Below, piece after piece: positions 43,618 to 60,953 of a DNA stretch of 64,000 nucleotides. The translations under genes were made by a program, and so were the position numbers. Numbering within the stretch: position 1 is the first letter of the stretch; the number at the start of each line of letters is the position of its first letter. The notes below the pieces were generated by a model. The model did not search any database. It saw only the letters and a list, made by a program, of their open reading frames with translations, and was not told the origin of the DNA. The stretch is taken from positions 1 to 64,000 of the forward strand of contig JBCCHT010000012.1 in NCBI GenBank assembly GCA_039028615.1, read 5' to 3'. The DNA is from Myxococcota bacterium (GTDB lineage Bacteria; Myxococcota_A; Polyangia; Nannocystales; Nannocystaceae).

Positions 43618-44481
43618 CTAGCTGTTGCGCGTGATGGCCCGGTTGGTGATGTCGTTGATCTGGTCGTCGACGGATTGAACCCGCGCGGCCTCGGGATCGG
43701 GCTCTTGCGGCTTCTGGACGAGCGGCTGGTGTACCGGACACCCGCCGGTCTTGATGCTGTGCGGATGGTGCAGTTCGTCACCATCGCCCGTCATCCCGGC
43801 CTTCTTGCGAGTCTTGCGGTAGTCACCACGTGCCTTGGAGTTGTCACGCGGGGACCTCACTTTGAAGATGCCGTCCTTGGGCGGAAGCATCTCGGTGAGG
43901 TCGGGGTGATCGGCGGCGATCTGATCGAACTCTTTGCGCTCGTCCTCGGAGAAGAACTCGTCGTAGGGCTTGCCGTCGGACTTGTTGGTGCCGTTGGCCT
44001 TCTTGCAGGTGGGGCACTTTTCCGGGGAGCCCTTGGCGGGCAGCGACACCATCTGGATGACACCGGCCAAGGTGGCGGAGTTGGGCGGGCTGCCGCTGCC
44101 GCCACAGTTGTTGAGCATGGGGTCGGAGAGCAAGTGGACGTTCTTGCCCTCGATCTTCACGTCGAGCGAACCGGGCCCCACGAACTTGGTAATGCCGTGC
44201 GTGTTGGCCGAGACCAGCCCGCCGCCGGTCCCCTTGGAGGCCACGTCCCCCATGCTCTTGAAGGTCGCGCCCTTGATGGCGACCGTCTTGCCCTCGATCT
44301 TGACCTTCTTGGAGTAGCCCTTGGGCGAGTCTCCGCTCTTGCCGATGTTGGGCAAGGGCGCGGGCACGAAGGGTGCGGGCGGGCCCGGCATCTTGCAGAT
44401 GTTGGGTACCGTGGCCGCGGCGATGCCGTTGCTGCCCTTGGTGACCGGGGTCTTGGGAGGATTGATGCCGACCTTGGCCAT
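43618..44481 (-). CDS. DUF4150 (PAAR-like) protein with C-terminal putative HNH-fold toxin
   Basis: PNICKMP, V.IEG, GS.DVKIEGKNV..L.D....N; C-terminal ELHHPH....GGCP; AGGAG RBS. Confidence 0.85.
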   Translation of the reverse strand: MAKVGINPPKTPVTKGSNGIAAATVPNICKMPGPPAPFVPAPLPNIGKSGDSPKGYSKKVKIEGKTVAIKGATFKSMGDVASKGTGGGLVSANTHGITKFVGPGSLDVKIEGKNVHLLSDPMLNNCGGSGSPPNSATLAGVIQMVSLPAKGSPEKCPTCKKANGTNKSDGKPYDEFFSEDERKEFDQIAADHPDLTEMLPPKDGIFKVRSPRDNSKARGDYRKTRKKAGMTGDGDELHHPHSIKTGGCPVHQPLVQKPQEPDPEAARVQSVDDQINDITNRAITRNS

Positions 44482-44493
44482 GACGCTCGCTCC

Positions 44494-45546
44494 TTAGGAA
44501 GGTCGCTCCAGCACGACCGCCGCCCGAAGGCCGGCATCGGACCCCGCGAAGAGCAGAGTCGTCGAGCCGCGATGATAACCACGCTGCCAGCCCGCGACCG
44601 CGAGGGCAACCAGGAGTGGGCCCGATGCGGCCCCGATATCGCCCCATTGACCGGCCGGGGCCTCGAAATCGCCGGCCTGCGTGAGCGCCCGATGGCTCCG
44701 CAGCGCGACCATGCCCCACTCTTCGGAGCGCATGCGCTCGCCGTTGAGGTCGCACAGCACGCGATCGGTGGACTGCCCGTTGCCGAGCAGCGAGGCGGCC
44801 GCCTTCTCGATGGCCGCGCTCAGGCCTCGCCCCAGGTTGACCGGATCGGTCGCCGGATCTTCGGACGCCGACGGCTCCCGTGCCACGCCCGTGCCCTGGA
44901 TGGTGGCCAACGACGGCAGCCGCAGGGTCCGCAGCGCGGTATCGCTGACCACCGCCACGCACCCCGCCGCCTCGCCGGGGAAGAACGACGAGCGAGTCTC
45001 CCGGGTTTTGATGCGTCGGCCCTCACCGAGCCAGCGCAGGGTGTCCGCGTCGAGGTAGCTGTCGACCCCGAGGACCAGCGCCACCTCGAAGTGTCGCTCG
45101 CCGATGAGCTCGACCGCTCGGTGCAAACCGAGCAAGCCCGCCGCGTGCCCGTGGCCCACCGTGTGGATCCCGAACGGATGCTGCGCGGGCGCGATGGACC
45201 CGAGGTACTGATGGAGCCGCTGTTCCTCCGCCGCACCGAACCCGGGACGATGCTCGGGGAGGGCGAGCATCAAGGCGAGCGGCGCATCGGGCCGATGGGG
45301 CGGGACCGAGCGCAGGGTGTGCTGCAGCGGCGCAGACAGCAGCGCGGCCATGCGTTCCCAGCCCATCAGGGTGTCGTCCAGCCGCCCGTCGACCGCGGCG
45401 CGCAATGGCTCTCCGGTGGAGTCGACCAGCGTCTCGTGGGCCTCGATGCGGACGATGCCCGCACGCACGGCGGCGGCACTGGTCGTCGCGTCGAGCCCCA
45501 GCGGGGTCCGAGCCCCCACGTCCACGATGTGACAGATCCGTTTCAC
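44494..45546 (-). CDS. PRK06147-like ketoacyl-synthase-fold T6SS accessory protein
   Basis: TPLGL.A..SAAAVRAGI, GVDSYL, F.PGEAAG, DLNGE..R.EEWG, WGD.GAA; GTGA overlap with DUF2169. Confidence 0.88.
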   Translation of the reverse strand: MKRICHIVDVGARTPLGLDATTSAAAVRAGIVRIEAHETLVDSTGEPLRAAVDGRLDDTLMGWERMAALLSAPLQHTLRSVPPHRPDAPLALMLALPEHRPGFGAAEEQRLHQYLGSIAPAQHPFGIHTVGHGHAAGLLGLHRAVELIGERHFEVALVLGVDSYLDADTLRWLGEGRRIKTRETRSSFFPGEAAGCVAVVSDTALRTLRLPSLATIQGTGVAREPSASEDPATDPVNLGRGLSAAIEKAAASLLGNGQSTDRVLCDLNGERMRSEEWGMVALRSHRALTQAGDFEAPAGQWGDIGAASGPLLVALAVAGWQRGYHRGSTTLLFAGSDAGLRAAVVLERPS

Positions 45547-46547
45547 TCTGGATTGCGGGCTTCGACGTTGACGACGTCGAGGTAGTCGAGGTCGGCGGCG
45601 GCGACCGGCAGGCTCGATTGCCACACGACCAACACCCGGCGGTCGTCGGGCTCGATGATGACGGTGGTCACCCGCGCGGGGGCCGGGCGTGCCTTGGAGC
45701 CGAAGAAGGAAGTGGTGGAGATCGTGGTGGGCGGCAGCTCGAAGGACAGATGTCGATCGGGGGTGAGGTGCACCAGCTCGAAGCGCGTGCCCCCGCCGAG
45801 GTATCGACCCGGCTGCTGGTCGCGAGGCGAGCACAGCGTGGCGCGGGGATCGTAGTCCTCGGGGAGCAGCGGCTTGCGGGTCTCCACCCAGCGCGCATCG
45901 TAGGTTCCCCCCAGCTCGAGCCGCGGCGACCAGAAGCTGCACAGGGCGCCAAAGCCTGCGGGCCCCACCTTGGAGGCATTCTGGCCGGGGTACAGGATGT
46001 TGGGTGCGGGCGTGTCGACCAGGTGTGCCGACCGGGTCGCGAACCCGACCCCGACTGGGTTGCGGGGATCGAGCCGATGCTTGCTCTGGTCGGGATCGGT
46101 GGTGTCGTGCCCCCCGAACGCCCGCTCGTACACGATGGGCATGCGCTCGAAGGGCCGCGGCGTGGTGGTGGTGAGACCAGCGACCCCCGCGTAGTAGACG
46201 TTCTCGCCGCGGACGTTCAGGACCTTTTGCTGGTCGTCTATCCGCAGGGACACCGCGACCTCCTCGACCGGGCGGTTGGGCGCATAGGCATGGCCGTTGA
46301 CGACCACGTCGGTAGATGGCTTGAGCGGCCCAAGCTCGAGGTCCCAGCGCAGACTCGAGGCGCCGTCTTCCCCCTGGTAGTCCGGCTCGAGCGCAGGCGG
46401 GAGCTGGGTCTCGGCCACGCGCAACCGCCCCTGAGCATCGACCTCGTAGGTCGCCCGAACGGCGACGATGAACTGATGGCGCCCGTCGACGTCACGGACC
46501 CAAGTACGATCGACCTCGAAGGGCGACTCGTTGACTACGGCCCACAT
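45543..46547 (-). CDS. DUF2169 T6SS effector adaptor
   Basis: N.SPF, K.STDVVVNG.AYAP, YERAFGG, NPVGVG, PAGFG....W.PR....GTYD..W, P.LP.DYD. Confidence 0.92.
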   Translation of the reverse strand: MWAVVNESPFEVDRTWVRDVDGRHQFIVAVRATYEVDAQGRLRVAETQLPPALEPDYQGEDGASSLRWDLELGPLKPSTDVVVNGHAYAPNRPVEEVAVSLRIDDQQKVLNVRGENVYYAGVAGLTTTTPRPFERMPIVYERAFGGHDTTDPDQSKHRLDPRNPVGVGFATRSAHLVDTPAPNILYPGQNASKVGPAGFGALCSFWSPRLELGGTYDARWVETRKPLLPEDYDPRATLCSPRDQQPGRYLGGGTRFELVHLTPDRHLSFELPPTTISTTSFFGSKARPAPARVTTVIIEPDDRRVLVVWQSSLPVAAADLDYLDVVNVEARNPE

Positions 46548-47831: not shown

Positions 47832-48003
47832 GACGAGGCGGAAATGGACCTTGGCATGTCGCGGTAACGCGAGCCAGTGCCGGCCCACGAAGCATCGGAG
47901 ACGCTCTTTTCATCGCCCGTGACATGAGCAAAATCTCACGCGACAATGCGGGGCACGGCGCGCCGCTTCCCCACCGCGGCCACGTCGTCCCCCGCCACCA
48001 CCC

Positions 48004-49503
48004 GTGAGCACCACCGTCCTCTTCGTCGGAGTCGTCGTCTTTGCCTTCGTGGCGGGCCGAATACTCGACCGCTTCACCCACAAGGCATTCGCGCTTTCGG
48101 GGGCGGAGTACCTGTTGCTCGGGGCGATTCTCGGACCCTTTGCGCTCGGGGTGCTCGACGCCGAGGTCCTGCATGCGCTCGACCTTTTCGTGTCGACCGT
48201 GCTCGGCGTCATCGGGTTTCTCGTGGGGCTCTCGATTCGCCAGGTCCGTGCGAGCACCGAGGCGTTCCTGGCCGGCGGCGGGGCCACGGTCGGCATCATC
48301 GTCAGCGTCGCGGCCGTCGCCACGCTGATCATCCAGCTGCTCGACCCCAGCCTGCTCTACGTCGAGCCGCTGCTGTTCGAGCCGCTGACGGCCAGCTCCG
48401 ACTCGCTCGTCTCGCTGTGGATCTCCCCGGAGGCGCTGTGGATCGGGCTGACGGTGGGCGCCGCCGCAGGTACGTGCAGCGCCGCGCTGGTCGACGCCGC
48501 CCTGCTCCGCTTCGGAGTCGGGGCGGAGCGAGCCGCCCTGCTCCGCGCCATGGCGTCCTCGGCCCAGCTGCTCGCCGTGTTCGCGTTCGGCCTCGCCATG
48601 GCCGGGAGCCGAGCCACCACCGCAGCCAGTGCTCTCGGGCTGACCGTCGTCGAGTGGTCGACCATCACCATCTTGTCCGGCAGCTTCACGGGCTTGCTCT
48701 TCAGCATCTTCCTCGGGCGCGAGGGCGACCCCATGCGGCTGCTGGTCGCGGCCGTCGGCGTCATCGTGTTCGCGGCGGGCATCGGGGCGGCGTTGGGCGT
48801 CTCGCCGCTGTTCGCCAACCTCTTCGCCGGGCTCACCCTGGCGCTGACCTCGTCGCATGCGGCCCGGCTCGACGAAGCGCTACGGCCCCTGCGATTTCCC
48901 ACCACGGTGTTGGTGCTCTTGCTCGCGGGTGCCACCTGGGCGCCCGCCACTGGCTGGTACTGGGCGCTCGTGCCCGGCTACGTGCTGCTGCGTGTGCTCG
49001 CCCGTCGCGTGTTCAGCCGGGTCGCCGTCAGTACCTTCGTCGACGAGCCCGCCCACGCGCGGGGCATCGGCCGGGCGCTGCTGGGGCAGGGAGTGCTGGC
49101 CAGTGCCATCTCGCTGGCCTTCGCGCAGCGCTTCCCCGAGCTGGCGGGTCCGGTGACGTCGACCGTGCTCGGCGGCGTGTTGATCACCGACCTGTTCGCG
49201 ATGCGATCGTTGCGGCGGTACCTGGCCGACGCGGGCGAGATCAAGGCGCTCGCGCCTCCCGACCTCGCGCCGGAACCCGAGCCTGCGTCGCACGATGACC
49301 ACCAGGGGCACGGCGACTCCGAGCCGGCTGAGCAACCAGAGCCCGTCGCAGACGCAGACAAAGAGACCGAGCCCGCAGAGCCGGCCGAGTCCACATCGGG
49401 ATCCAGCGAAGAGCCCGAGCCGACCCCTGCGCCCGCGTCCGAAGCCAACGAAGAGCCCGAGCCGACACCCGAGCCCGCTTCCGACGAAGGAGCCTCCTCA
49501 TGA
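48004..49503 (+). CDS. Cation:proton antiporter (CPA)-like membrane protein with acidic tail
   Basis: SGAEYLLLGAILGP, GFLVGL, LGVSPLF, GQG.LA..I.L; about 12 TM; Glu/Pro-rich C-tail. Confidence 0.7.
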   Translation: MSTTVLFVGVVVFAFVAGRILDRFTHKAFALSGAEYLLLGAILGPFALGVLDAEVLHALDLFVSTVLGVIGFLVGLSIRQVRASTEAFLAGGGATVGIIVSVAAVATLIIQLLDPSLLYVEPLLFEPLTASSDSLVSLWISPEALWIGLTVGAAAGTCSAALVDAALLRFGVGAERAALLRAMASSAQLLAVFAFGLAMAGSRATTAASALGLTVVEWSTITILSGSFTGLLFSIFLGREGDPMRLLVAAVGVIVFAAGIGAALGVSPLFANLFAGLTLALTSSHAARLDEALRPLRFPTTVLVLLLAGATWAPATGWYWALVPGYVLLRVLARRVFSRVAVSTFVDEPAHARGIGRALLGQGVLASAISLAFAQRFPELAGPVTSTVLGGVLITDLFAMRSLRRYLADAGEIKALAPPDLAPEPEPASHDDHQGHGDSEPAEQPEPVADADKETEPAEPAESTSGSSEEPEPTPAPASEANEEPEPTPEPASDEGASS

Positions 49504-50837
49504 GAGCACTGATCTTGGGCGGTGGAGAAGCCGGCCGCTTCATCGCGGCATCCCTCCCCGACGATTCCGAAATCGTCCTCGTCGACGACGACCCCGAGGC
49601 GCTCGCGGCCGCCGAAGAAGGCCTCGACGTGTTGACCCTCCGCGGCGACGTCACCCACCGCGGCGTGCTCGAGCGCGCAGAAGCCCACCAGGCCGACGTC
49701 GCGGTCGCGGTCACCGGTCACGACGCGATCAACATCGCCGCCGCCGTCATGGCCAAGGAAGCCGGCGTCGGCAAGACGGTCGCCCGCGTCGACGATCCCG
49801 GCTTCTACAAGACCGAGCAGGGCCTCGAGCGATCGATCGCGGGCATCGACGCCTGCATCTGCGCCTCCCGCCTGGTCGGTCGCGAGCTGCTGCGCATGGT
49901 CACCTCGATCAGCGCCTCGTTCACCTTCAGCCTGGGCGGCGGTGCAGCGCACGTGGCCACCGTCAAGATCGACGAGACCTCGCCCCTGCGCGGTGAGGCC
50001 CCCGCCCGCCTCCGCTCGCGCAACGAGGCGGTCATCCGCAGCGTACTGCGAGGCGGCAACCTCCGCGCCCCGACCGAGGTCGAGATGCTCGAGGAAGGCG
50101 ACCGCATCCTGCTCGTGGGCACCCCGCTGGCGATCGCGGAGTTCGGTCAGCGCACCCACGCCCGCAGCCGCGCCGTGCTCATCGGAGGCGGCGACGTCGG
50201 GGTCCAGCTCGCCAACCTGTTCTCCACCCTGGTCGGCGACGTGCGGCTCATCGAGTCGTCGCGGGCCCGCTGCGAGGAGCTCGCCCGGCTCGTCCCCAAG
50301 GCCACCGTGCTCCATGGAGACGGCACCAGCCTGGGCTTCCTCCGCGAAGAACGGGTCGGCCTCGCCGAGTGGGTGCTTTCGGTGACCGGCTCGGACGAGG
50401 TCAACCTCATGGCGTCGCTGCTCACTCGCGAGCTGGGCGTCGAGCACACCTTCTCGCTGATGCACCGCCCGGGCTACGCCTCCGTCTATCAGCACTTGGG
50501 CATCGAGGGCACGACCAGCGCGCACGAGGTCATGGCCCGCACGCTGCGAGGACTCTTGCCCGGTCGCGAGCTGGTCGGCGCCGCTCGACTGACCGGGACC
50601 GACTTCGACCTGCTCGAGCTGCGCGTGCCGCCGCTGCCCCGCCCCATCGCCCCACGGTCCTTGCCGCTGGGCGCCAGCGGCCGGGTCATCGGGGTGGTCG
50701 GCAACCAAGAAGAGGTTCGCCTGTACGAGCCCGGCACCCGCGTCAGCGGAGGTGAACACGTGGTGGTGGCCGCTCCCGCCGCGCGCCGCCGGGAAATCGT
50801 CCGCGCCATTCGACGACTGGGGACCCACGACGAATGA
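49500..50837 (+). CDS. trkA: Trk potassium uptake regulatory subunit
   Basis: Two RCK-N domains (GGGEAG, GGGDVG), HGDGT, VTGSDEVNL; adjacent to trkH. Confidence 0.9.
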   Translation: MRALILGGGEAGRFIAASLPDDSEIVLVDDDPEALAAAEEGLDVLTLRGDVTHRGVLERAEAHQADVAVAVTGHDAINIAAAVMAKEAGVGKTVARVDDPGFYKTEQGLERSIAGIDACICASRLVGRELLRMVTSISASFTFSLGGGAAHVATVKIDETSPLRGEAPARLRSRNEAVIRSVLRGGNLRAPTEVEMLEEGDRILLVGTPLAIAEFGQRTHARSRAVLIGGGDVGVQLANLFSTLVGDVRLIESSRARCEELARLVPKATVLHGDGTSLGFLREERVGLAEWVLSVTGSDEVNLMASLLTRELGVEHTFSLMHRPGYASVYQHLGIEGTTSAHEVMARTLRGLLPGRELVGAARLTGTDFDLLELRVPPLPRPIAPRSLPLGASGRVIGVVGNQEEVRLYEPGTRVSGGEHVVVAAPAARRREIVRAIRRLGTHDE

Positions 50838-52279
50838 ACGCCCGGGTCGTCAGCGGCCTGACCGGCCTGCTCATCGGAATCGTAGCGCTGCTGCTGCTCG
50901 CCCCTGCGATCGTGGCCGCCTACGACGGGCAGGCGCGCTCGGTCGGAGCCTACGGGTCCACGGCCATCGCCGCCCTGGCGGTCGCCGTGGGCCTGCGCCG
51001 CTTCGGCCGGGGCGCGTCCGACGAGATCCACCGCAAGGACGCCCTCGGTGTCGTCGCCCTGACCTGGCTGTGCCTGGGGATCTTGGGCGGCCTGCCCCTG
51101 CTGATCGAGGGCTCGATCCCCGACCCGATGGGCGCGCTATTCGAGGCCGTCTCCGGCTTCACCACCACCGGGGCGACGGTGGTCGCCGACGTCGACGACC
51201 TCAGCCGCGCCACCAACCTGTGGCGCTGCCTCATGCACTGGGTCGGCGGCATGGGCATCGTGGTGCTCTTCGTCGCCGTGTTCCCCATCCTGGGCGTCGG
51301 CGCCAAGCACCTGTTCAAGTCCGAGGTCCCGGGGCCCATCACCGAGGGCCTGCGCCCGCGCATCCGCCAGACCGCCGTGGCCCTGTGGTGGATCTACGGG
51401 GGTCTCACCGCGCTGGCCACCGTGCTGCTGGTCGTCGCCGGTATGCCGGTATTCGACTCGGTCTGCCACGCCATGTCCACGCTGGGCACGGGCGGGTTCT
51501 CGTCGCGGGGGGCGAGCATCGGCGCCTACGACAGTGCGGCCATCGACTGGATCATCACCACCTTCATGCTGATCGCGGGGCTCAACTTCGGGCTCTACTA
51601 CGGCCTGCTCACCGGGCGCTGGTCGGAGCTATGGCGCAACTACGAGCTGCGCTTTTATCTCGCGATCAACGTCGCGGTCATCGCCCTGGTCGCCGTGTCG
51701 ATCCACGCCCGACACGGCTCCGCCATCGAGGCGGTGCGCTTCGCCGCCTTCCAAACCGCCGCGGTCACCACCACCACCGGGTTCATGACCGAGGACTTCG
51801 ATACCTACCCGGACATCGCCCGCATGGCCCTGTTCGGCTGCATGTTCATGGGCGCCTGTGCGGGCTCGACCGCGGGCGGCATCAAGGCCTCGCGGATCTT
51901 CATCCTCGGCAAGATCGTCCTCCGCGAGCTGCGAGCGGCCGTGCGCCCCAACGTGGTCCAGACCATCCGGGTCGGCGGGGGCAACCTCAGCCGCGACGTG
52001 GTGCGGGGCATCACCACCTTCTTCGTGGCCTACCTGGCGCTGTTCGGCATCGCCTCGTTCGTGCTGGTCGCCTTGGGCCTCGACATCCTGTCGGCCATGA
52101 GCGCCGCCGTGGCCTGCCTGTCGAGCGTGGGCCCGGGCCTGGCCGAGGTGGGCCCCGCCCAGAACTTCGGGTTCGTGCCCGGCCTGGGCAAGGGCGTGCT
52201 GTGCCTGTGCATGATCGCGGGCCGCCTCGAGATCTTCGCCCTCTTCGCCGTCTTCAACCCCGAGTGCTGGAGGAAGTAG
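50834..52279 (+). CDS. trkH: Trk potassium uptake channel subunit
   Basis: FEAVSGFTTTGAT, W.GGMG, TGGFS, TTTGF, GSTAGGIK, SVGPG, GRLEI. Confidence 0.96.
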   Translation: MNARVVSGLTGLLIGIVALLLLAPAIVAAYDGQARSVGAYGSTAIAALAVAVGLRRFGRGASDEIHRKDALGVVALTWLCLGILGGLPLLIEGSIPDPMGALFEAVSGFTTTGATVVADVDDLSRATNLWRCLMHWVGGMGIVVLFVAVFPILGVGAKHLFKSEVPGPITEGLRPRIRQTAVALWWIYGGLTALATVLLVVAGMPVFDSVCHAMSTLGTGGFSSRGASIGAYDSAAIDWIITTFMLIAGLNFGLYYGLLTGRWSELWRNYELRFYLAINVAVIALVAVSIHARHGSAIEAVRFAAFQTAAVTTTTGFMTEDFDTYPDIARMALFGCMFMGACAGSTAGGIKASRIFILGKIVLRELRAAVRPNVVQTIRVGGGNLSRDVVRGITTFFVAYLALFGIASFVLVALGLDILSAMSAAVACLSSVGPGLAEVGPAQNFGFVPGLGKGVLCLCMIAGRLEIFALFAVFNPECWRK

Positions 52280-52283
52280 CGGG

Positions 52284-55200
52284 ATGCGTCGGCTCTTCGT
52301 AGTGATTGCCCTGCTGGCCATGATGGTCAGTCTGCGTGCGCTCAAAGCCGAGACCTCCGATGGCTCCGACCCGCTGACGCTGGCCGCGATCGGCTTCGTG
52401 GTGCTCGCCGCGTTCGCGCTCGCCGAGCTCGGCGCCCGGCTGTCGCTGCCCAAGGTCACCGGCTACATCCTCAGCGGCGTCGCCCTGGGCCCCTTTGCCG
52501 CCAATGTGCTGTCCGCCGACGAGGTCGTCGAGCTGGAGATGTTCAGCACCTTGGCCCTGGGTCTCATCGCCACCACGGCCGGGCTCGAGCTCGACCTGCG
52601 TGCCCTCGCCCGGCTCACCCGCACGCTCGGCGCCACCATCGGGGTCAAGATCGTCACCGGCCTGCTGCTGGTGGGCGGGGCCCTGGTCGCCTTCGAGTCC
52701 TTCACCGGTACTTTGGGGCTGAGCGACACCACCACCATGGTCGCCATGGGCCTGGTGTTCGGCGCCCTGTCGCTCGGGACCTCGCCCGCCATTGCCCTCG
52801 CCGTGCAGAGCGAGAGCGGAGCCAAGGGGCGGCTCACCGAGATCGTCCTGGGCGCAGCCGTGGTCAAGGACGTGGTGGTCGTCGTCGGCCTGGCCATGGC
52901 CCTGGCGGTGAGCAAGGCCCTGCTGGGCGGCGGCAGCCTCGGCATCGACGTGGTGCTCCACCTCGGGCAGGAGCTCGGGTCCTCGGTGCTCGCGGGCGCG
53001 GTCTTGGGGGTCATCCTCATCGCCTACCTGCGCTTCGTGAAGACCGAGATGTTGCTCTTCGTCGCCGCCATGGTCCTGGTGGTGGCGGAGATCAGCGCGG
53101 TGCTCCACCTCGAGCTGCTGCTGGTCTTCATCGTGGCCGGCGTCGCGGTCCGCAACTTCTCGCCCTACGAGCACGACCTGCTGTCGCCGCTGCAGACCAT
53201 CTCGCTGCCCGTGTTCATCGTGTTCTTCACGACGGCGGGGGCGAGCATCGATCTCGGCGCGACGTGGTCGGTGCTGCCGCTGGCGCTGGTGCTGTGCGGA
53301 GCTCGGGCGGGGGGTTACTACGTCGCGTCCCGGGTGGGCGGCGGTTTCGGCAACGAGCCCGATGCCGTGCGGCGCCTGGCCTGGCTGGGTTATCTGCCGC
53401 AGGCCGGCGTCACGCTGGGCCTGGTGGGCTTGGCCGGCACCGCGCTGCCCGAGCTCAGCGAGCCGCTCGCCTCGCTGGGCATGGCCGTGGTCGCGGTCAA
53501 CCTGCTGGTCGGCCCCATCACGCTGCGCGTCGCGCTGCGGGGCGCGGGTGAGACCGCCGACGCTCGCCCGGCCGAGCAAGAAGAAGGCGAGGTCGCGCCC
53601 GTCCCCGTCGAAGAGCTGCCCGAACAGCTCGAGTCTCCCGAGCTCCGCGCCATGCTCCTCGAGCTGCGGGAGTCGCTGGCCCAGCCGTGGGAGCGCTGGC
53701 GCAAGGGCACGCTGGAGCCCAACGCCTGTCGCTGGCGCACGAGCATCGATCCCTCGGGCAGCTCTCGCGCCAACGATCACGGGGCGGCCGCGGTCCTTCG
53801 CGGCCTCGAGCGCGTCGCTCTCGAGCAAGAGCACGACCCGGCACAGGGCCTGCGTACCGTGCTGCGGCAGCAGCTGCATCACCTCCAGGCGCTGCCCCCC
53901 ACCGCCGTCGTGCCGCTCGAGGAGCGCAACGCCCGGCCCGGCCCCGACGACTCGCACTTCGCCCGCTGGCTCAAGCGGATCGCCGCGGTCGGTGCGTTCA
54001 TCGGAGGACGCCGCGGACGACGGAGTCGCCGCGCTCCCGTGCGCATCACGGCGCGCACGGTCATCGAGCCCGCCATGGCGCGGCTGGCCGAAGAGACCCT
54101 CCGCGACTGGCAACGCTACGAGGTCGAGTGCCTCGAGACCCTCGAGCGCGTCGCCTTGCACACCGGCTCGGGCGAGGACGCGGTCACCGAGCTGCAGCAA
54201 CGCCAGCAGGTGCTGCTCGACAAGGTGGCCTCCAACCACCGCGCCACGCTGTGGGCGGCCACCCGCGAGCTCGCGCGCCGCCTCGCCGTGCTGGGAGCCC
54301 CGGGCGCGCCCGCTCGGACCCGCTACTCCACTGTCGAGCGCGAGCTGACGGCCAGCCTCGACCGCCTCGACGCCGACGCCGAGGAGTGGCCCTCCCGTCG
54401 CCGCGCCGCCGTCGACCGCCTACGATTCAATGCCGAGACCGAGCGGGTCGAGCACAGAGTGCGCGCCCGGTTGCAGCAAGAAGTAGTGGCCCCGCTCGAC
54501 AACGCCTTCGAGCGCATCGAGGTGCTGCTCCGCGAGCAATACCAGCGACTCGAGAGCCTGCCGCGCTGCGCCGACTTGGCCGATGACGACGCGTGGGCCC
54601 GCGCCGACGCCCAGATCCGCGCCGTGCTGCCCAAGCCCGCCGCCAAGGAGCTCCGCAGCCTGAGCACCCGCGTGCGCCGAGCCACCTCCAGCGACAACGC
54701 CAGCGCCGAGCTCCGCAGCTTCGTCTCCGATGGCGACCAACAGATCACGGTGGTCGCCTCCCTCGACGCGCTGTCGCGAGCCGCCCGCCCGGCCGAGGTC
54801 GAGATCGTCACCGTGAACGTCCGCGAGCTCAAGGAGGTCCAGCTCGCGGGGCGGGTCTTGCCGCTCATCGAAGAGTGCCTCAGCGACGCTGCCATGGCGT
54901 TCTCCGCCGTGCGCGATCAGATGCGCGAGGTCGTGAGCCTCGCCGAGTTCGGCTTCGAAGCCGCGATGCGGGCACGCGGCGACGAGAGCAGCTCCATCAC
55001 CCAGCTCGACGAGGCGCTGTCGCGGGGGCAGAGCATGCTCGAGGCGCTTCAGGCGGGGGCGGCCCGCAGCTGGGTCGACGGGCGACCGCGGCTGCTCGGG
55101 GTCGTCAACGGCCTCGCCGAGCAACTCTCCGACATGGTGACCGCCACGGCCGGGGGCGACCACGGGTCGGCCGCGGCTCCGGTGAGCACGTGGGCCCGCC

Positions 55201-56441
55201 TTCGCCAGCGCGTGCTCCGTTGGCAGCGGCGGACCTTCACCACTCTACGACAGCTCATCCACGCCCTGCGGACCGGTGAAGTCGGTCAAGCGGCAGAGGA
55301 CCTCGCGCTGCGCTATCGCCTGCGGGCGGGCCTCGAGCTGTTCGACGCCCACGCCATCGCATCCTACCTCACCGAGCAGCAGGAGCTCCGGCGCGACCGC
55401 CTCGGAGGCCTGCACGCGTCGCTGTTCTCGCCCGAGCCCCTTCGCGATCCTCGGCTCTTCGTCGCCAACCGCGAGTCGCTCGGCACCATCGTTCGCGCCG
55501 AGCGTTCCTGGCAGTCGGACTATGCCAACGGCAACGGTGTGCTCGTCGTGGGAGCCACGGGCACGGGCAAGAGTTCGACCCTCGGCATCGCCCAGCTCAA
55601 GCTCGGCACGCGCCGGGTGATCTCCGTGCGTCCCACCCCCGAAGCCACCAGTCTTCGCGGTGCGCTGGCGCGGGCGCTCGGGGTGAGCGACGACGAAGAC
55701 GCCATCGACGGCGCCCTGCGACCGACCCCGTCCATCGTCGTCATCGACGACCTCCAGCGCTTCTTCCCGCCCACCGCCGCGGGGCTCGGGGCCCTCGCCT
55801 CGTTCATCAGCCGCGTCGTCTCCACCCGCGAGACCACCTTCTGGCTGGTGGGCATGGCCGAGGAGTCGATGTTCACCTGGCAGAGCCTGCAGGCCCTCGA
55901 CGAGGCCTTCCCCTGTCGTATCCATCTGAACCCGCTCGACCTGAGTACCCTGGCTGCGGTCATCGAGGCCCGCCGCGAGCTCGGCGGTCAGCGCTGCGTC
56001 TACCCGGCACCGCGCGGCGCCTGGCTGGCCAAGGTCCTGCGCCGCTCCCCGCAAGAGACCTACCTGCGGCGCCTGAGCACCGCGGCGGGAGGGAGCCTGC
56101 GCCGCGCCATGGACCTGTGGCGGGCGCATGCCGAGGTCGACGACGATGCCCTGCACCTGCGGCCCATCACCGCGATCTCGTGGCGACTGCCCTTCGTCCA
56201 GCAGCTGCGGCCCGAGGCGCAGGCCATTCTCACCCTGCTCGTCCGACACGGAGACCAGCCCGCGGCCGCCATCGCGACCGCGCTGGGCCTCGATGCCCCC
56301 GCCCTCGAGGTGCACCTGCGCTTCTTGGTCTCGAGCGGACTCATCTGCGACGACGCGGGGGCCTACGGGATCGCCACCTTCGTCAAAGACGACCTCATCG
56401 CGGCCCTGCGAGAGACCGGCTCGGTAGGAGGAAGCGTCTGA
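52284..56441 (+). CDS. CPA antiporter fused to long helical region, P-loop ATPase and winged helix
   Basis: N-terminal about 420 aa: LPKVTGYILSG.ALGP, TSPA, KDVVV, FF..AGA.ID, PQAGV; Walker A GATGTGKSS (55551), Walker B IVVIDD; C-terminal L..LV..GLI. Confidence 0.82.
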   Translation: MRRLFVVIALLAMMVSLRALKAETSDGSDPLTLAAIGFVVLAAFALAELGARLSLPKVTGYILSGVALGPFAANVLSADEVVELEMFSTLALGLIATTAGLELDLRALARLTRTLGATIGVKIVTGLLLVGGALVAFESFTGTLGLSDTTTMVAMGLVFGALSLGTSPAIALAVQSESGAKGRLTEIVLGAAVVKDVVVVVGLAMALAVSKALLGGGSLGIDVVLHLGQELGSSVLAGAVLGVILIAYLRFVKTEMLLFVAAMVLVVAEISAVLHLELLLVFIVAGVAVRNFSPYEHDLLSPLQTISLPVFIVFFTTAGASIDLGATWSVLPLALVLCGARAGGYYVASRVGGGFGNEPDAVRRLAWLGYLPQAGVTLGLVGLAGTALPELSEPLASLGMAVVAVNLLVGPITLRVALRGAGETADARPAEQEEGEVAPVPVEELPEQLESPELRAMLLELRESLAQPWERWRKGTLEPNACRWRTSIDPSGSSRANDHGAAAVLRGLERVALEQEHDPAQGLRTVLRQQLHHLQALPPTAVVPLEERNARPGPDDSHFARWLKRIAAVGAFIGGRRGRRSRRAPVRITARTVIEPAMARLAEETLRDWQRYEVECLETLERVALHTGSGEDAVTELQQRQQVLLDKVASNHRATLWAATRELARRLAVLGAPGAPARTRYSTVERELTASLDRLDADAEEWPSRRRAAVDRLRFNAETERVEHRVRARLQQEVVAPLDNAFERIEVLLREQYQRLESLPRCADLADDDAWARADAQIRAVLPKPAAKELRSLSTRVRRATSSDNASAELRSFVSDGDQQITVVASLDALSRAARPAEVEIVTVNVRELKEVQLAGRVLPLIEECLSDAAMAFSAVRDQMREVVSLAEFGFEAAMRARGDESSSITQLDEALSRGQSMLEALQAGAARSWVDGRPRLLGVVNGLAEQLSDMVTATAGGDHGSAAAPVSTWARLRQRVLRWQRRTFTTLRQLIHALRTGEVGQAAEDLALRYRLRAGLELFDAHAIASYLTEQQELRRDRLGGLHASLFSPEPLRDPRLFVANRESLGTIVRAERSWQSDYANGNGVLVVGATGTGKSSTLGIAQLKLGTRRVISVRPTPEATSLRGALARALGVSDDEDAIDGALRPTPSIVVIDDLQRFFPPTAAGLGALASFISRVVSTRETTFWLVGMAEESMFTWQSLQALDEAFPCRIHLNPLDLSTLAAVIEARRELGGQRCVYPAPRGAWLAKVLRRSPQETYLRRLSTAAGGSLRRAMDLWRAHAEVDDDALHLRPITAISWRLPFVQQLRPEAQAILTLLVRHGDQPAAAIATALGLDAPALEVHLRFLVSSGLICDDAGAYGIATFVKDDLIAALRETGSVGGSV

Positions 56442-57313
56442 TGACTCGACTGAAGACCGCCGCCCTCGCGACCTGCTCCCTGCTCACCGCCTGCCGCTCC
56501 CGCTCTCTCGAGGCCGAGGACGCGGCCATCGTCCGTACCTACGCCGACGAGCTGGGACCGGAGCTGCTCGCCGAGCTCAGCCACGTGCTCGACGTACTCA
56601 CCCCCGGCCGGGTGCTCGTCGCCCTGACCTTGGTCGCCTTCGTGGTGATCATGCAGCGGGTCCTGCTGCTCTCGGTCCGCATCGCGTGGCGGCTGGGCTG
56701 GGACCCGCAGCGCCGCCTCGCTCGCATCCGCAGCCTGGCCGAGATCGTCCTGCTGCTCTCGGTCGGCCTGCTGCTGGTGTGGATGGTCTTCAAGGTCGTC
56801 CCCTTGCTCACCTGCCTCGCCGCCATGTCGATCGCGCTCATCGTCGCGGTCGCGCTCCCCGGGGGTCTCCAGGACTTCGCCGCGGGCATCTCCCTGGCCA
56901 ATCGCTCCCGCTTCCTCGAGGGCGACCAGATCGAGGTCGGCCCGCACTCGGGCACCGTGCGCCACATCGGCCTCGTTCGCACCATGCTGCGACTCGGCGA
57001 CCGCGGCTCGCTGTGGATCCCCAACCGCGAGGTGGTGCGCAGCGCGGTCATGGTGGGTCGCGAGCAGCAAGCCCTGCCACTGACGGTGGAGCTGCCCGGC
57101 GGGCGGCTCGGCCCCGACCGACGCGAGCACCTGCGACAAGTCGCTCACCTGTCGCCCTATCGTCGGGCCGGCAGTCGCCCCACCCTCGAGCGCGAAGGCG
57201 ATCGCTGGACGCTCTCCTTCCAGACCTGGTGCACACGTCGGCCCGAGATTGCCGCCCGCTCCGTGGAACGCCAGCTCGCCGACATCGTGCGGCAGTGGGA
57301 GGCCCGCTCGTGA
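56441..57313 (+). CDS. MscS-family mechanosensitive channel
   Basis: LQDFAAGI, F.EGDQIEVG...GTV..IGL.RT.L, IPN; TGATG overlap with the upstream gene. Confidence 0.88.
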   Translation: MTRLKTAALATCSLLTACRSRSLEAEDAAIVRTYADELGPELLAELSHVLDVLTPGRVLVALTLVAFVVIMQRVLLLSVRIAWRLGWDPQRRLARIRSLAEIVLLLSVGLLLVWMVFKVVPLLTCLAAMSIALIVAVALPGGLQDFAAGISLANRSRFLEGDQIEVGPHSGTVRHIGLVRTMLRLGDRGSLWIPNREVVRSAVMVGREQQALPLTVELPGGRLGPDRREHLRQVAHLSPYRRAGSRPTLEREGDRWTLSFQTWCTRRPEIAARSVERQLADIVRQWEARS

Positions 57314-58860
57314 ACACTCGCTCCCGCGCCGCCCGGCTCGCGCTCGTCGTCGGCATCGGCCTGCTCGGGGCCTGCAAGCTCGAGCCGATCGAAGACCTCG
57401 AGATCTCCGAGCCGGCCCCGCCGACCCTGCCCGATCGCGTGGTGCCCCTGTCCACCGAGCGCCCCGTCGGTGACCGCCAGGCCGAGCGCTGGGACGCCTC
57501 GCTGAACCGTTACCTCGGCTTCATCCACGGCGAGCCGCTGCAAGGACGGCGACCGGGCACCGAGGGCGCGACGCTGACGGTGGGCTTCGTCATCAGCGTG
57601 CTCGAGGGGGCCGGTCTGTCGCCCAACGGCCCCGACCTCGGGTGGACCCAACCGGTCGGCATTCGCATCGTCGAGATGCACGACCCCGTGCTCACCGTGC
57701 GGCACGCGGCGAAAGAGGGCGAACGAAAGGCCCCTGCCCCGCTGCGCTTCACCGAGGACCTGTGGCTCGAGCACCGCGGTGCCGCGGGCGAGTTCAGCCA
57801 TGCGCTGCGCATCGACGGCCCCGAGCCCGCCGTCGACCCCGAAGCCACGCCCGAAGATGGCCAGGCCCCGCTCGAGCGGCTCCAGGCGCCGCCCTTGCCC
57901 GTGCCCGAGGACGGCCGCTCCGTACGGGACCTGTATCGCGAGGTCTTCGACACCGCCTGGCGTGATGGAGTCGGCGTCGCCGTCATGCCCATCCCCGGCC
58001 CCGACCAGGTCGAGGCGCGGGCCATCGCCGAGTCGTGGCGGCGCCCCGACGTGCAATCGCTGCTGCCGGGGCGAGACCCTCCCGCCGCCCTCGATCTCGA
58101 GGGCTTCGTCCCGCCCGAAGTCCACGCCGCCTTGCTCGAGGCCCGCGACCGCCCCGGCTCCAGCATCGACGTCGACTTCCGCGTCGACGAGCGATGGTTC
58201 GAGGACTCCAACGTCATCGGTCGAATCGCTGGAGGTCGGCGCCCCGAGCAGGCCGTGGTCGTCGTCGCCAACTGGGACGCGGGTGAAGACGAAGCCGGCG
58301 CTCCCTCCAACGGCTCGGGCCTCGCCGTCCTGCTCGCCCTCGCCGAGGCCTCGGGTCGCTGGCGCAGCGTCGGCCGTCGTCCCGAGCGCTCCCTCATCTT
58401 CGTCGCCACCGCCGCGGGCAGCCTCTCCCACCGCGGCGCCACGCGCTTCATCGAGTCCAGCGGCATCCGCCCCTCCAACATCATCGCCGTCATCAACCTC
58501 GAGCAGCTCGGCGGCGCCGGCTCGGACCTCCTCGTCCTCGACGGCCACCACTCCAGCCTCTCCGACGACGTCACCACGCTCGACGCCACCGCCCGCATCG
58601 TCCCCGACGACGCCGCCCGACACGGCCACCGCCCCTTCGTCGATCGCCGGATCCCCGCCGTCACTCTCAGCCGCCCCGCCGAGCCCGGCGAAGACGGCGA
58701 GCCCCCCGAGCTTTCGATCGCCGCCCTCCGCAACGACGCCGAGCTCGCCTTCCGCCTCCTGTGGGAACTCTCCGACCGCCGCGAGATCCCCCGCCTCGCC
58801 GAGGCCGACCCACCATCGCCCGACGACGGCACTCGAGCTGCGGCGGGCACGACCCCCTGA
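57310..58860 (+). CDS. M28 peptidase-like lipoprotein, probably inactive
   Basis: Lipobox LGAC; GRRPGT.G, NVIGRIAG...PEQ.VVV.A.WD, N.SGLA.LL.LA, RSLIFV, INL; Zn ligands substituted. Confidence 0.78.
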   Translation: MNTRSRAARLALVVGIGLLGACKLEPIEDLEISEPAPPTLPDRVVPLSTERPVGDRQAERWDASLNRYLGFIHGEPLQGRRPGTEGATLTVGFVISVLEGAGLSPNGPDLGWTQPVGIRIVEMHDPVLTVRHAAKEGERKAPAPLRFTEDLWLEHRGAAGEFSHALRIDGPEPAVDPEATPEDGQAPLERLQAPPLPVPEDGRSVRDLYREVFDTAWRDGVGVAVMPIPGPDQVEARAIAESWRRPDVQSLLPGRDPPAALDLEGFVPPEVHAALLEARDRPGSSIDVDFRVDERWFEDSNVIGRIAGGRRPEQAVVVVANWDAGEDEAGAPSNGSGLAVLLALAEASGRWRSVGRRPERSLIFVATAAGSLSHRGATRFIESSGIRPSNIIAVINLEQLGGAGSDLLVLDGHHSSLSDDVTTLDATARIVPDDAARHGHRPFVDRRIPAVTLSRPAEPGEDGEPPELSIAALRNDAELAFRLLWELSDRREIPRLAEADPPSPDDGTRAAAGTTP

Positions 58861-58871
58861 GGCGATCCGCT

Positions 58872-59963
58872 CTAGCCTCCGGCGCCGACGGTCACCACCG
58901 GTCCGCTGCCGCCCGGGGTGGACATGAGCGAGAACAGGTAGGTGAGCATGACAAAGACGTTCTGGGAGTCGGTATCGTCGGCGGCGATGTAGAAGGCGCG
59001 GCCGTTGTAGTCGACGCTGGCGTAGGCATCGCTGGGCGCCTTCTTGGCCTCGCGAACCTGCAACAGGGCATCGGCCAAGGCAGCGGGCCGACCTGCGACT
59101 CCTTCCACACCCTGGGACAGGTAGTACATGCTGGCCATCATCGACCGACCATGCAGGGTGACCTGGTGGGGGGTCGACTCGCCGCTATGGGGTGACAGCG
59201 CGTAGCGATAGGCGTCGGGATCGAGGCCGAGCAACGCACGGACTTCCGCGACCTGCGTGCGACCGGCGTCGGTCCCCGGGATGGCGAACACGAGCTCGTA
59301 GCTGCCATCCGCCTTCACGCCCGTGGTGATGGCGTGACTGCGCTGGAGCTCGCTGAGCATGCGCCCCAGTCGCTGGAAGTCGGTCTGCTCCTCGCGCCAG
59401 GGATTCTCAGGGGCGAACTGGCCGTTGATCTGCTGCACGCAGCAGGCGAGCACGGCATCCCAGGGCCAGCCCGCTTGCACGAGCTGAGCGATGGCCGAGG
59501 AGGACAGCGGGGTCGCGAGACGATGAACGAAATCCTCTCCTTGCAGCGGGGTATAGGTGATGGTGGGTCGCTCCTCGACCATGACGCCGGCCGCCGCCCC
59601 CACGCTGGCGGGCGGAACGAAGCCCCCGGGGCCGACGGTGTTGTAGGCCCCGTTGATGCCGGCGTTGGTCGACACGGCGTACTGGGTGACGACGCTGCTG
59701 ACCTGCAGGAACACGGGCAGCCGACGGTGCCGCAGCCGTACGATGTTGAGCAGCATCTGCTGCTCGGCGGACTGGGCGATCGACGCGGTGTAGTCGAAGC
59801 GCACGTCGGGCAAGCTCCGCGCGCCGACTCGAGTGGCACAGGCGCTGAGCGTGAGCAGGACGAGCATGGTGACAACCGCCCCAAACGCCCGCAGTCGCGG
59901 GATTCGGCGGCTTCGGGCGAACGAGTGGGGGGTCGAACGGGTGTCGGTGGGATGGTCGTGCAT
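58872..59963 (-). CDS. Conserved hypothetical lipoprotein
   Basis: Lipobox LSAC; QMLLNIVRLR...PVFL, E.PTITY.PL.GE.F, YNGR.FYIA.DD; start uncertain (59963 or 59867). Confidence 0.7.
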   Translation of the reverse strand: MHDHPTDTRSTPHSFARSRRIPRLRAFGAVVTMLVLLTLSACATRVGARSLPDVRFDYTASIAQSAEQQMLLNIVRLRHRRLPVFLQVSSVVTQYAVSTNAGINGAYNTVGPGGFVPPASVGAAAGVMVEERPTITYTPLQGEDFVHRLATPLSSSAIAQLVQAGWPWDAVLACCVQQINGQFAPENPWREEQTDFQRLGRMLSELQRSHAITTGVKADGSYELVFAIPGTDAGRTQVAEVRALLGLDPDAYRYALSPHSGESTPHQVTLHGRSMMASMYYLSQGVEGVAGRPAALADALLQVREAKKAPSDAYASVDYNGRAFYIAADDTDSQNVFVMLTYLFSLMSTPGGSGPVVTVGAGG

Positions 59964-59998
59964 ACGCCGGGCCCTCGCTTCAATCCCGAGCATGGCAC

Positions 59999-60012
59999 TT
60001 GCGAAGGAGCAA
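59999..60012. promoter_or_regulatory. Candidate LysR box in the divergent promoter
   Basis: TTGC-GAAGGA-GCAA dyad containing T-N11-A, about 35 nt upstream of the LysR start. Confidence 0.4.
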
Positions 60013-60047
60013 AGAAACGCACCAAAATGCAATCGAGACCCGCAATC

Positions 60048-60953
60048 ATGCAAAGATTAGAGAACTGGGACGACCTGCGTTTTTTCCTCGCTGTGGCCCG
60101 TACGGGGGGTCTATCCGCCGCATCTCGAGAGCTGGGAGTCAACCAGTCCACGGTCTCGCGCCGCATCACCCAGCTCGAGGAGGGGCTGGCGGCACGCCTG
60201 TTCAACCGCCAGGCCCGGGGCTACGAGCTCACCGCGGTGGGCGAGCGCATGCTGGGGCTGGCCACCATCATCGAGGACGATGTGCTGGCGCTGAGCCGCA
60301 TGGTGATCGGAGCCGACCGCGACCTGCGGGGCACGATCCGCGTGACCACGGTGGACGAGCTCTTCGAACGCATCGCGCCGCACCTCAAGCGCTTCAGCGA
60401 CGAGTACCCCGGGATCGACATCGAGATGAACTCGGACAACCGCGTCTACAGCCTGGCGCGCGGCGAGGCCGACGTGGCGATCCGGCCCGGCCTACGACCG
60501 ACGGAAGACGCGGTGGTGGGCCGCAAGCTGGTGGCCTCGCCGCTGTCTGCCTATGCCTCTCCCGCCTATCTGGCCGCGAACAAACGACCCCGCCGCATCG
60601 CCGACCTGGCCAAACACACGCTGGTGAGCTTCGGCCACGGGCGCCCGAGCGACCCGGAGCTCCGCGCGATGCTCGAGGAGGGTCGCGTCGTGCTGCGCAC
60701 GGGCAGCATGACCGGGCAAGCCATCGCCGCCCGGGCAGGGATGGGCGTGGCGGTGCTTCCCCGGTTCATGGGCGACCCGGATCCGCAGCTCGAGCGCCTC
60801 TTCGGCGTGCCCACCGTTGCCCCCACACACCTGTGGCTGCTGATCCACGCCGACCTGCGGCAGACAGCGCGCGTGCGCGCATTCGTGGACTTCATGACCG
60901 AGTCGATCATGGCCGAGCGGGCCCTGTACGAAGGCACGCGCAAGCGAAGCTAG
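60048..60953 (+). CDS. LysR family transcriptional regulator
   Basis: NWDDLRFFLAVAR.G.LSAA...LGVNQSTVSRRI..LE, LFNR...GY.LT, GEADVAIR. Confidence 0.96.
   Translation: MQRLENWDDLRFFLAVARTGGLSAASRELGVNQSTVSRRITQLEEGLAARLFNRQARGYELTAVGERMLGLATIIEDDVLALSRMVIGADRDLRGTIRVTTVDELFERIAPHLKRFSDEYPGIDIEMNSDNRVYSLARGEADVAIRPGLRPTEDAVVGRKLVASPLSAYASPAYLAANKRPRRIADLAKHTLVSFGHGRPSDPELRAMLEEGRVVLRTGSMTGQAIAARAGMGVAVLPRFMGDPDPQLERLFGVPTVAPTHLWLLIHADLRQTARVRAFVDFMTESIMAERALYEGTRKRS

Follow-up and report, generated by a model that had tools for sequence, protein, structure and literature searches.

Among described ion exchangers, the KefC and KefB K+/H+ exchangers come closest to the protein at the centre of this work; they are cation:proton antiporters (CPAs) of the CPA2 type with a C-terminal RCK domain and with KefF or KefG as partners. 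CPAs in general are seen as homodimers with small regulatory tails, and MscS channels as self-sufficient tension valves. Here we analyse a cluster of six genes (g1 to g6, Table 1) in a 64,000-nucleotide window, that is the whole stretch of DNA analysed, from a Myxococcota bacterium of the Nannocystaceae (GenBank assembly GCA_039028615.1, contig JBCCHT010000012.1, positions 1 to 64,000). In this cluster the two genes of a TrkAH channel (g2, g3) lie between a degenerate CPA-fold protein (g1) and a fusion of a CPA domain, a helical arm and a nucleoside triphosphatase (NTPase) module (g4), which is followed by an MscS-like protein (g5) and an M28-family pseudo-peptidase (g6). The parts come from known families and it is the assembly that is new. 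A description of the system was not found in the open-licence literature, covered as titles, the starts of abstracts and passages of PMC10219603, with subscription papers falling mostly outside; as far as this search reached, the system is real, widespread and undescribed. Based on gene order, gene overlaps, domain architecture, motif states and co-occurrence we propose, with a probability of about one half, that the cluster is a conserved operon-like unit and that its g1/g4/g5 core would form one membrane assembly, with the NTPase as a switch docked on the MscS-like channel and tethering the exchanger.

Like KefC and KefB, g4 joins a membrane domain of CPA2 type to a nucleotide-binding cytoplasmic regulator and has a neighbouring partner gene, and homologues of both g4 and g1 are labelled 'KefB' in some sources. 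However, the regulator of g4 is a helical arm with an AAA+/winged-helix module rather than an RCK domain, its ion site reads Lys-Asp (KD) with Arg at position 8 of the CPA motif where Kef has QD with Lys, its partner is a second CPA-fold protein, and it scores 50.9 on the TIGR00932 profile against a cut-off of 238. The candidate assignment of g4 as a KefB orthologue was rejected.

Conservation of the cluster across relatives

Locus counts were made on the best 80 of 373 confirmed stretches, from a scan over 42 of the 64 parts of the genome contig collection; they include kin and are thus neither independent nor statistical tests. A g4 match is present in 26 of 41 related genomes, and tblastn on regions from related genomes recovered the full gene order in several of them and, in others, g1-g4-g5 with Trk missing. 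The NTPase is present in 67 of the 80 loci, and the MscS-like gene follows it directly in every one of the 66 loci with 600 nucleotides of flank. Likewise g1 lies upstream of g4 in all 72 informative loci (8 were dropped for short flank), with intact TrkA and TrkH genes between them in 38. An M28 gene is found downstream in 12 of the 60 loci with 2.5 kb of flank, in Nannocystaceae-like genomes only, and is missing from the other 48; all six genes are together in 13 of 80 loci, every one of them in a Nannocystaceae-like or unclassified genome. The original prediction had drawn all six genes as a single combined ion module: the clustering and the core order g1-g4-g5 are borne out in relatives, but the unit was drawn too wide, with Trk and M28 often absent, and the invariant pairing of NTPase and MscS-like protein was missed. 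A fixed six-gene system was accordingly rejected, as was a role for g6 as an essential envelope partner. The conserved core appears to consist of three genes, g1, g4 and g5, with the six-gene form a lineage elaboration of it, and we propose that g6 joined it late, as a passenger.

In 29 of the 34 loci that lack Trk, g1 and g4 adjoin with an overlap of -4 or -1. On the g4 tree, in which the nearest relatives are Nannocystaceae/Nannocystales records, the Trk state switches at least 13 times. This tree is unrooted and cannot by itself tell gain from loss; repeated loss is the simpler reading because the position of Trk is constant and g1 abuts g4 in its absence. Junctions of -4 or -1 recur in relatives at g1/trkA (37 of 38), trkA/trkH (29 of 39) and g4/g5 (50 of 65, with a 4-nucleotide overlap in 46 of the 65), and since -4 overlaps are favoured by TGA stops in GC-rich genomes the conserved order is stronger evidence than the overlaps. 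Pairwise identity correlations between the five core and Trk products over 29 loci all fall between 0.72 and 0.84, which fits joint inheritance but is explained by shared ancestry and is not evidence of contact.

The record titles of the loci name Myxococcota, Bdellovibrionota, Fibrobacterota, Acidobacteriota and Ignavibacteriota, with the CPA pair alone found also in Calditrichota and Bacillota. Cultured carriers include Plesiocystis pacifica SIR-1, Enhygromyxa salina and Paraliomyxa miuraensis. Two Eubacteriales loci (L136:6980-10272 and L139:4732-8017) have a g1-like/KD-type CPA pair downstream of a PTS EIIA gene and no NTPase; EIIA is possibly another regulator of this pair there.

The NTPase module and its MscS-like neighbour

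Among clusters at 50% identity, 681 relatives of the soluble part of g4 were counted, and look-alike clusters without a CPA domain are commonest in Bacteroidota and Acidobacteriota. By profile, the NTPase module occurs in 57 of 151 genomes of the window's phylum and in 53 of the 251 genomes sampled from the phylum around locus L138. We looked at 30 further loci picked to span open reading frame lengths, 20 of the 54 matches from the latter phylum and 10 from the former. An MscS-like gene adjoins the NTPase in all 30, downstream in 27 and upstream in 3, whether the NTPase is stand-alone or is fused to an AA_permease/SLC12-type (APC) carrier, to a CPA domain or to a signal peptide or transmembrane domain. 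The genome under study has four NTPase-module genes, each followed by an MscS beta-domain gene (Table 1), and seven other MscS beta-domain matches without an NTPase. The tightest and invariant link therefore appears to be that between NTPase and MscS-like protein, with g1-g4 next.

These pairings bear on a simpler explanation, namely that independent salt and turgor proteins are merely co-regulated on one transcript, with the NTPase regulating its own fused transporter as RCK does in KefC and making no contact with g5. Osmotic-gene clusters are common, downstream neighbours vary freely, CPA pairs are found without the NTPase and Trk comes and goes on the g4 tree as described above, all of which co-regulation would accommodate. 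It fails to explain why the NTPase keeps an MscS-like neighbour when its transporter is absent or of another kind, or why all four NTPase copies of one genome are paired with MscS while seven other MscS matches are not, and we consider it unlikely.

At L135:14512-17021, L185:2667-5125 and L186:2523-5009 a Ktr-type channel and a single-RCK subunit come directly after the MscS-like gene; the three loci may be kin and are counted as one event. They represent a second arrangement with a K+ channel, which stands in this place instead of TrkAH in the middle. Stand-alone NTPase and MscS pairs were seen in the Bacteroidota phylum (L171, L173, L174, L176, L177, L179 and L181-L183), with genes for RecQ, type III pantothenate kinase, ankyrin or M49 peptidase often close by, and some of these NTPases (about 440 amino acids) have no helical arm.

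The structure model of g4 residues 440-1385 is confident (pLDDT 90, pTM 0.60), and its last third resembles Cdc6/Orc1, RuvB and archaeal AAA+/winged-helix ATPases (2qby, 1w5s, 8efy, 2qen and 2fna; Foldseek E 1e-7 to 1e-5, Z 14-16). Within model residues 601-940 an AAA+ core with a helical lid is found (Z 15.9 to NSF-D2 and 15.2 to Cdc6/Orc1), while Pfam gives weak AAA_22 and helix-turn-helix (HTH) matches for the C-terminal region, the latter below the curated cut-off. The GK[ST] signature of Walker A is present in g4, and among 120 aligned full-length homologues its Lys position holds K in 67, R in 51 and C in 2. Walker B lacks the catalytic Glu of the hhhhDE pattern, reading hhhhDD in g4, the second position being D in 101 of the 120, N in 9, G in 8 and E in 1, and R1230 is the same in all. 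This combination of a Lys or Arg in Walker A, an hhhhDD Walker B and an invariant Arg suggests a module that binds nucleotide with weak hydrolysis, which fits better than a motor. With Cdc6/Orc1, RuvB, archaeal ATPases and the NOD modules of STAND proteins g4 shares the AAA+ core, the lid and the C-terminal winged helix; it differs from them in its fusion, by way of an arm of 600 residues, to a membrane transporter, in its missing Walker B Glu, in a Walker A Lys that is often Arg in the family, in having no sensor repeats and in an identity of only 12-20%. The NTPase-helical-winged-helix architecture fits STAND proteins, yet the best folds are Cdc6 and RuvB, nSTAND1 matches are below cut-off, and g4 ends after the winged helix. 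Within the arm itself a weak duplication is seen (hhalign probability 73.7, E 3e-5, against 0.1 for controls); the whole-model structure search matched it to designed helical bundles only, and a search for named clusters gave none that was usable.

The MscS beta-domain of g5 is over the Pfam cut-off (E 1e-9), and the modelled fold shows, behind membrane helices, the cytoplasmic domains of MscS, both beta and alpha/beta (Foldseek match to 7dlu at E 9e-11). These folds are those of the wider MscS family (E. coli MscS, YnaI and MscK, and plant MSL), from which g5 is set apart by a family-specific SPYR motif, a model that ends in a helix, a near-obligate NTPase neighbour and a lipobox-like start with Cys18, found likewise in 20 of 65 homologues by a loose pattern. 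The MscS reference pattern is a third transmembrane (TM3) pore helix with regularly placed Gly and Ala, whereas the g5 pore helix (columns 122-148) is variable and hydrophobic and followed by a single conserved residue, G149 (52 of 54). In the MscS-like homologues of L084, L085, L098 and L099 a signal-like start leads into long, His-rich extensions at the N-terminus.

This divergent pore helix favours a second alternative, in which the MscS-like protein is a scaffold or sensor rather than a release valve and the NTPase a STAND-like signalling wheel with a regulatory output, the winged helix possibly binding DNA or protein. The hhhhDD Walker B, weak nSTAND1 and AAA_16 matches in homologues, fold matches that include DNA-binding Cdc6/Orc1 as well as CED-4 and resistosomes, and weak MarR/HTH matches on the last domain point the same way. 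Against this, neither sensor repeats nor an effector domain follow the winged helix, the HTH matches of g4 stay under the curated cut-off and the named fusion partners are all ion or solute transporters, such that we regard the alternative as quite unlikely.

The CPA pair and the accessory genes

Passages of PMC6181914 define an eight-residue motif of CPAs in which Asp7 is essential and conserved in 94% of members, Glu5 marks CPA1, and Asp6 with Lys8 marks electrogenic CPA2. In g1, a CPA paralogue with homology to the g4 membrane domain throughout its own membrane part (hhalign probability 99.6 over 380 columns), the position of this ion-binding Asp is occupied by Q188; among its homologues Asp lies within 2 residues of the site in 2 of 68, and Glu is at the site in 7 of 68. 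R330 is invariant and D396 is the acidic residue of the last helix. Matches to g1 were absent from Pfam and NCBIfam, and its profile gave none against PDB sequences at E 1, although one distant homologue, in locus L136, passes the Pfam CPA cut-off. On these residues g1 is degenerate and, we infer, inactive, so that 'two CPA antiporters', as first described, was an overstatement. The tail of g1 (window 49250-49500) is acidic, rich in Pro and Glu, about 85 residues long with an imperfect internal repeat, and varies in length among homologues.

The g4 membrane domain by contrast matches Na_H_Exchanger almost end to end (Pfam E 4e-24, 85.8 bits against a cut-off of 26.2, profile positions 2-373 of 375) and keeps D196 (70 of 71), K195 (70 of 71), R341 (71 of 71) and K122 (65 of 71), with D196 aligning with the Asp of the NHE6 ND motif. 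Asp7 and, in position 8, a basic residue are therefore in place, the Glu5 of CPA1 is replaced at position 191 by A, S, I, M, L or T, and the Asp6-Lys8 pair of NhaA, NapA and GerN is replaced by K195 and R341. A Kef-like exchanger has Ser or Thr at position 4 and a C-terminal RCK domain, whereas g4 has GTSP with Pro168 and no TrkA_N match. From the lack of Glu5 together with Lys6, Asp7 and Arg8 the domain is predicted to be a non-electrogenic carrier of CPA2 type, for which Pro4 points to Na+ by a rule in the passages of PMC6181914 and the Trk neighbourhood points to K+. Lys at position 6 was not among the variants in those text passages; a KD clade may be in the figures or supplement of that paper. 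Related fusions have AD, GD or NN at this site. That g4 is instead an anion carrier, with K122, K195 and R341 forming an anion site round the single Asp and Trk supplying K+ as counter-ion, is very unlikely, for while these residues are conserved and the NTPase module also comes joined to carriers of APC/SLC12 type and stands beside SulP and CLC genes in single loci, D196 still aligns with the NHE6 Asp and KD is not kept in the related fusions.

Distant CPA pairs with no NTPase detected occur at L037, L038 and L040-L042; at L037, L038, L041 and L042 a DE-like site belongs to the first gene and AD or GD to the second, the acidic site seemingly being swapped between partners. Beside TrkAH at L170:8065-12462 and L196:7463-12085 lie g4-like genes with an N-terminal domain that has no CPA profile match, 11 hydrophobic segments remaining in that of L170.

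The identities first given to g2 to g6 are supported by Pfam. TrkA (g2, E 2e-38) has two TrkA_N stretches with the GxGxxG loops GGGEAG and GGGDVG, and TrkH (g3, E 1e-63) has TTTGAT, LGTGGFS, TTTTGF and SVGPG, which we take to be the TrkH filter motifs, and the Arg of GRLE, all conserved. Both are thus ordinary, motif-intact members of the TrkAH K+ uptake channel, which differ in being embedded with overlaps between two CPA genes and in scoring slightly below the NCBIfam cut-offs (290 against 293 and 306 against 331); the genome, which is 96.7% complete, has no TrkH-family match other than g3.

M28 metallopeptidases have metal ligands and catalytic residues in the order His/Asp/Glu-Glu/Asp/His. 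The sixth gene belongs to this sequence family (Pfam E 3e-14, over the cut-off), has a lipobox-like start with Cys22 and is 26% identical to an intact paralogue on contig C49. In comparison with three intact paralogues of the genome, however, its metal ligands and catalytic Glu pair are replaced, by N321, S333, G370-S371 and E398 with no YH, and the losses agree with those of 12 homologues, in keeping with its original description as a pseudo-peptidase.

A proposed assembly

The invariant NTPase-MscS link, with g1-g4 next, leads us to infer a membrane assembly. In this assembly g1 and the g4 membrane domain would form a heterodimer, as the dimerization domain of CPAs and the constant company of the two genes suggest; g4, as the sole carrier of the Asp, would perform electroneutral cation/H+ exchange and g1 would be its structural or regulatory half. 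The AAA+/winged-helix module would bind nucleotide, hydrolyse it slowly or not at all, oligomerise and contact the cytoplasmic cage of g5, while the helical arm would tether the CPA heterodimer to the channel, coupling exchanger activity to channel state (turgor) or to ATP/ADP. TrkAH would take up K+ under shared regulation, as a partner that many loci have and many lack. PMC6987127 describes a TrkAH channel that ATP opens and ADP closes, and TrkAH and the NTPase could therefore read one signal.

A number of observations weigh against such an assembly. Its parts also occur separately and so may be able to work apart: CPA pairs stand without NTPase or adjacent MscS at L133, L136, L139 and L037, and in Bacteroidota an NTPase-MscS pair is commonly seen with no transporter fused to it. 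Trk is missing from 34 of the 72 informative loci, and the CPA domain of g4 is itself eroded beyond detection at L170 and L196. The poorly conserved pore helix of g5 suggests that it may not be a tension-gated channel. As for g1, it may not be dead, given its invariant Arg and an acidic residue of the last helix in 65 of 68 homologues, and it is not singled out as a scaffold, core and dimer helices being conserved at 0.48 and 0.61 in g1 and similarly at 0.61 and 0.74 in g4 with helix limits set by hand. The evidence for an assembly is all genomic or modelled.

A broader reading, which we put forward tentatively and think somewhat unlikely, is that of an undescribed and widespread machine in which an AAA+/winged-helix switch caps an MscS-like channel and its arm wires in interchangeable transporters, here the first heterodimeric CPA, made of an active subunit and a pseudo-subunit and having a Lys-Asp site, and elsewhere SLC12-type carriers, such that tension or ATP/ADP would gate secondary transport. 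A dedicated ATPase-fold partner for MscS-like proteins would, if true, offer a testable reason for the many MscS paralogues of bacteria, such a partner being present for 4 of this genome's 11 MscS beta-domain matches. The published motif rules of the family would be put to the test by a CPA that lacks the Asp and is paired with a Lys-Asp one, and the unit as a whole would tie salt and turgor control to the nucleotide state of the cell.

Locus layout and neighbouring genes

Six co-oriented and mostly overlapping genes had been predicted, and their coordinates and all five junctions proved exact (in order ATGA, ATGA, a 4-nucleotide gap, TGATG and GTGA). GC content at the third codon position is 0.88-0.96 across the six open reading frames. 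Purine-rich tracts precede g2, g4, g5 and g6; g1 starts at a GTG without such a tract, and its homologues nevertheless align from the first residues. A divergent MFS gene with its start at 47888 bounds the cluster upstream, leaving a 115-nucleotide gap to g1. The promoter scan behind the candidate in this gap (Table 1) gave 2 sites against 0.2 expected in shuffles, and a terminator scan gave 4 sites against 2.2 +/- 1.6 expected.

Table 1 Features of the cluster and of the other NTPase-module loci of the genome. Plain coordinates refer to the window; C18, C20 and C71 are other contigs
Feature	Position	Strand	Description
Candidate operon promoter	47919-47947	+	sigma-70-like, in the MFS-g1 gap; 9/12 consensus match, consensus match only
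g1	48004-49503	+	degenerate CPA-fold membrane protein, 499 amino acids
g2	49500-50837	+	TrkA, 445 amino acids, double RCK
g3	50834-52279	+	TrkH, 481 amino acids
g4	52284-56441	+	CPA-helical arm-NTPase fusion
g4 residues 1-425	52284-53558	+	CPA2-type membrane domain; GTSP...K195-D196...R341, plus conserved K122
g4 residues ~440-1035	53601-55390	+	long helical arm; weak internal duplication; no named family
g4 residues ~1040-1385	55401-56441	+	P-loop domain of AAA+ fold with lid and winged helix; GATGTGKSS as Walker A, IVVIDD as Walker B, R1230 invariant
g5	56441-57313	+	MscS-like protein, 290 amino acids
g6	57310-58860	+	M28-family pseudo-peptidase; lineage-restricted
NTPase fusion (L190)	C20:114131-120096		fused to AA_permease-type carrier, 1730 amino acids; then MscS beta-domain gene
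NTPase fusion (L191)	C18:45048-49666		transmembrane fusion, ~1230 amino acids, long N-terminal region, 4-6 membrane helices; then MscS beta-domain gene
NTPase fusion (L192)	C71:19310-23971		transmembrane fusion, ~1230 amino acids, long N-terminal region, 4-6 membrane helices; then MscS beta-domain gene

Downstream the cluster is bounded by a convergent gene ending at 58872, which encodes 393 amino acids with a lipobox-like start and no Pfam match and, in window 58872-60953, is itself divergent from a LysR regulator. Further upstream, on the minus strand at 43618-46547, a DUF2169 gene, an unnamed 482-amino-acid gene and a gene for a PAAR-like domain stand side by side (first and last by Pfam match), presumably a typical type VI secretion adaptor/effector cassette.

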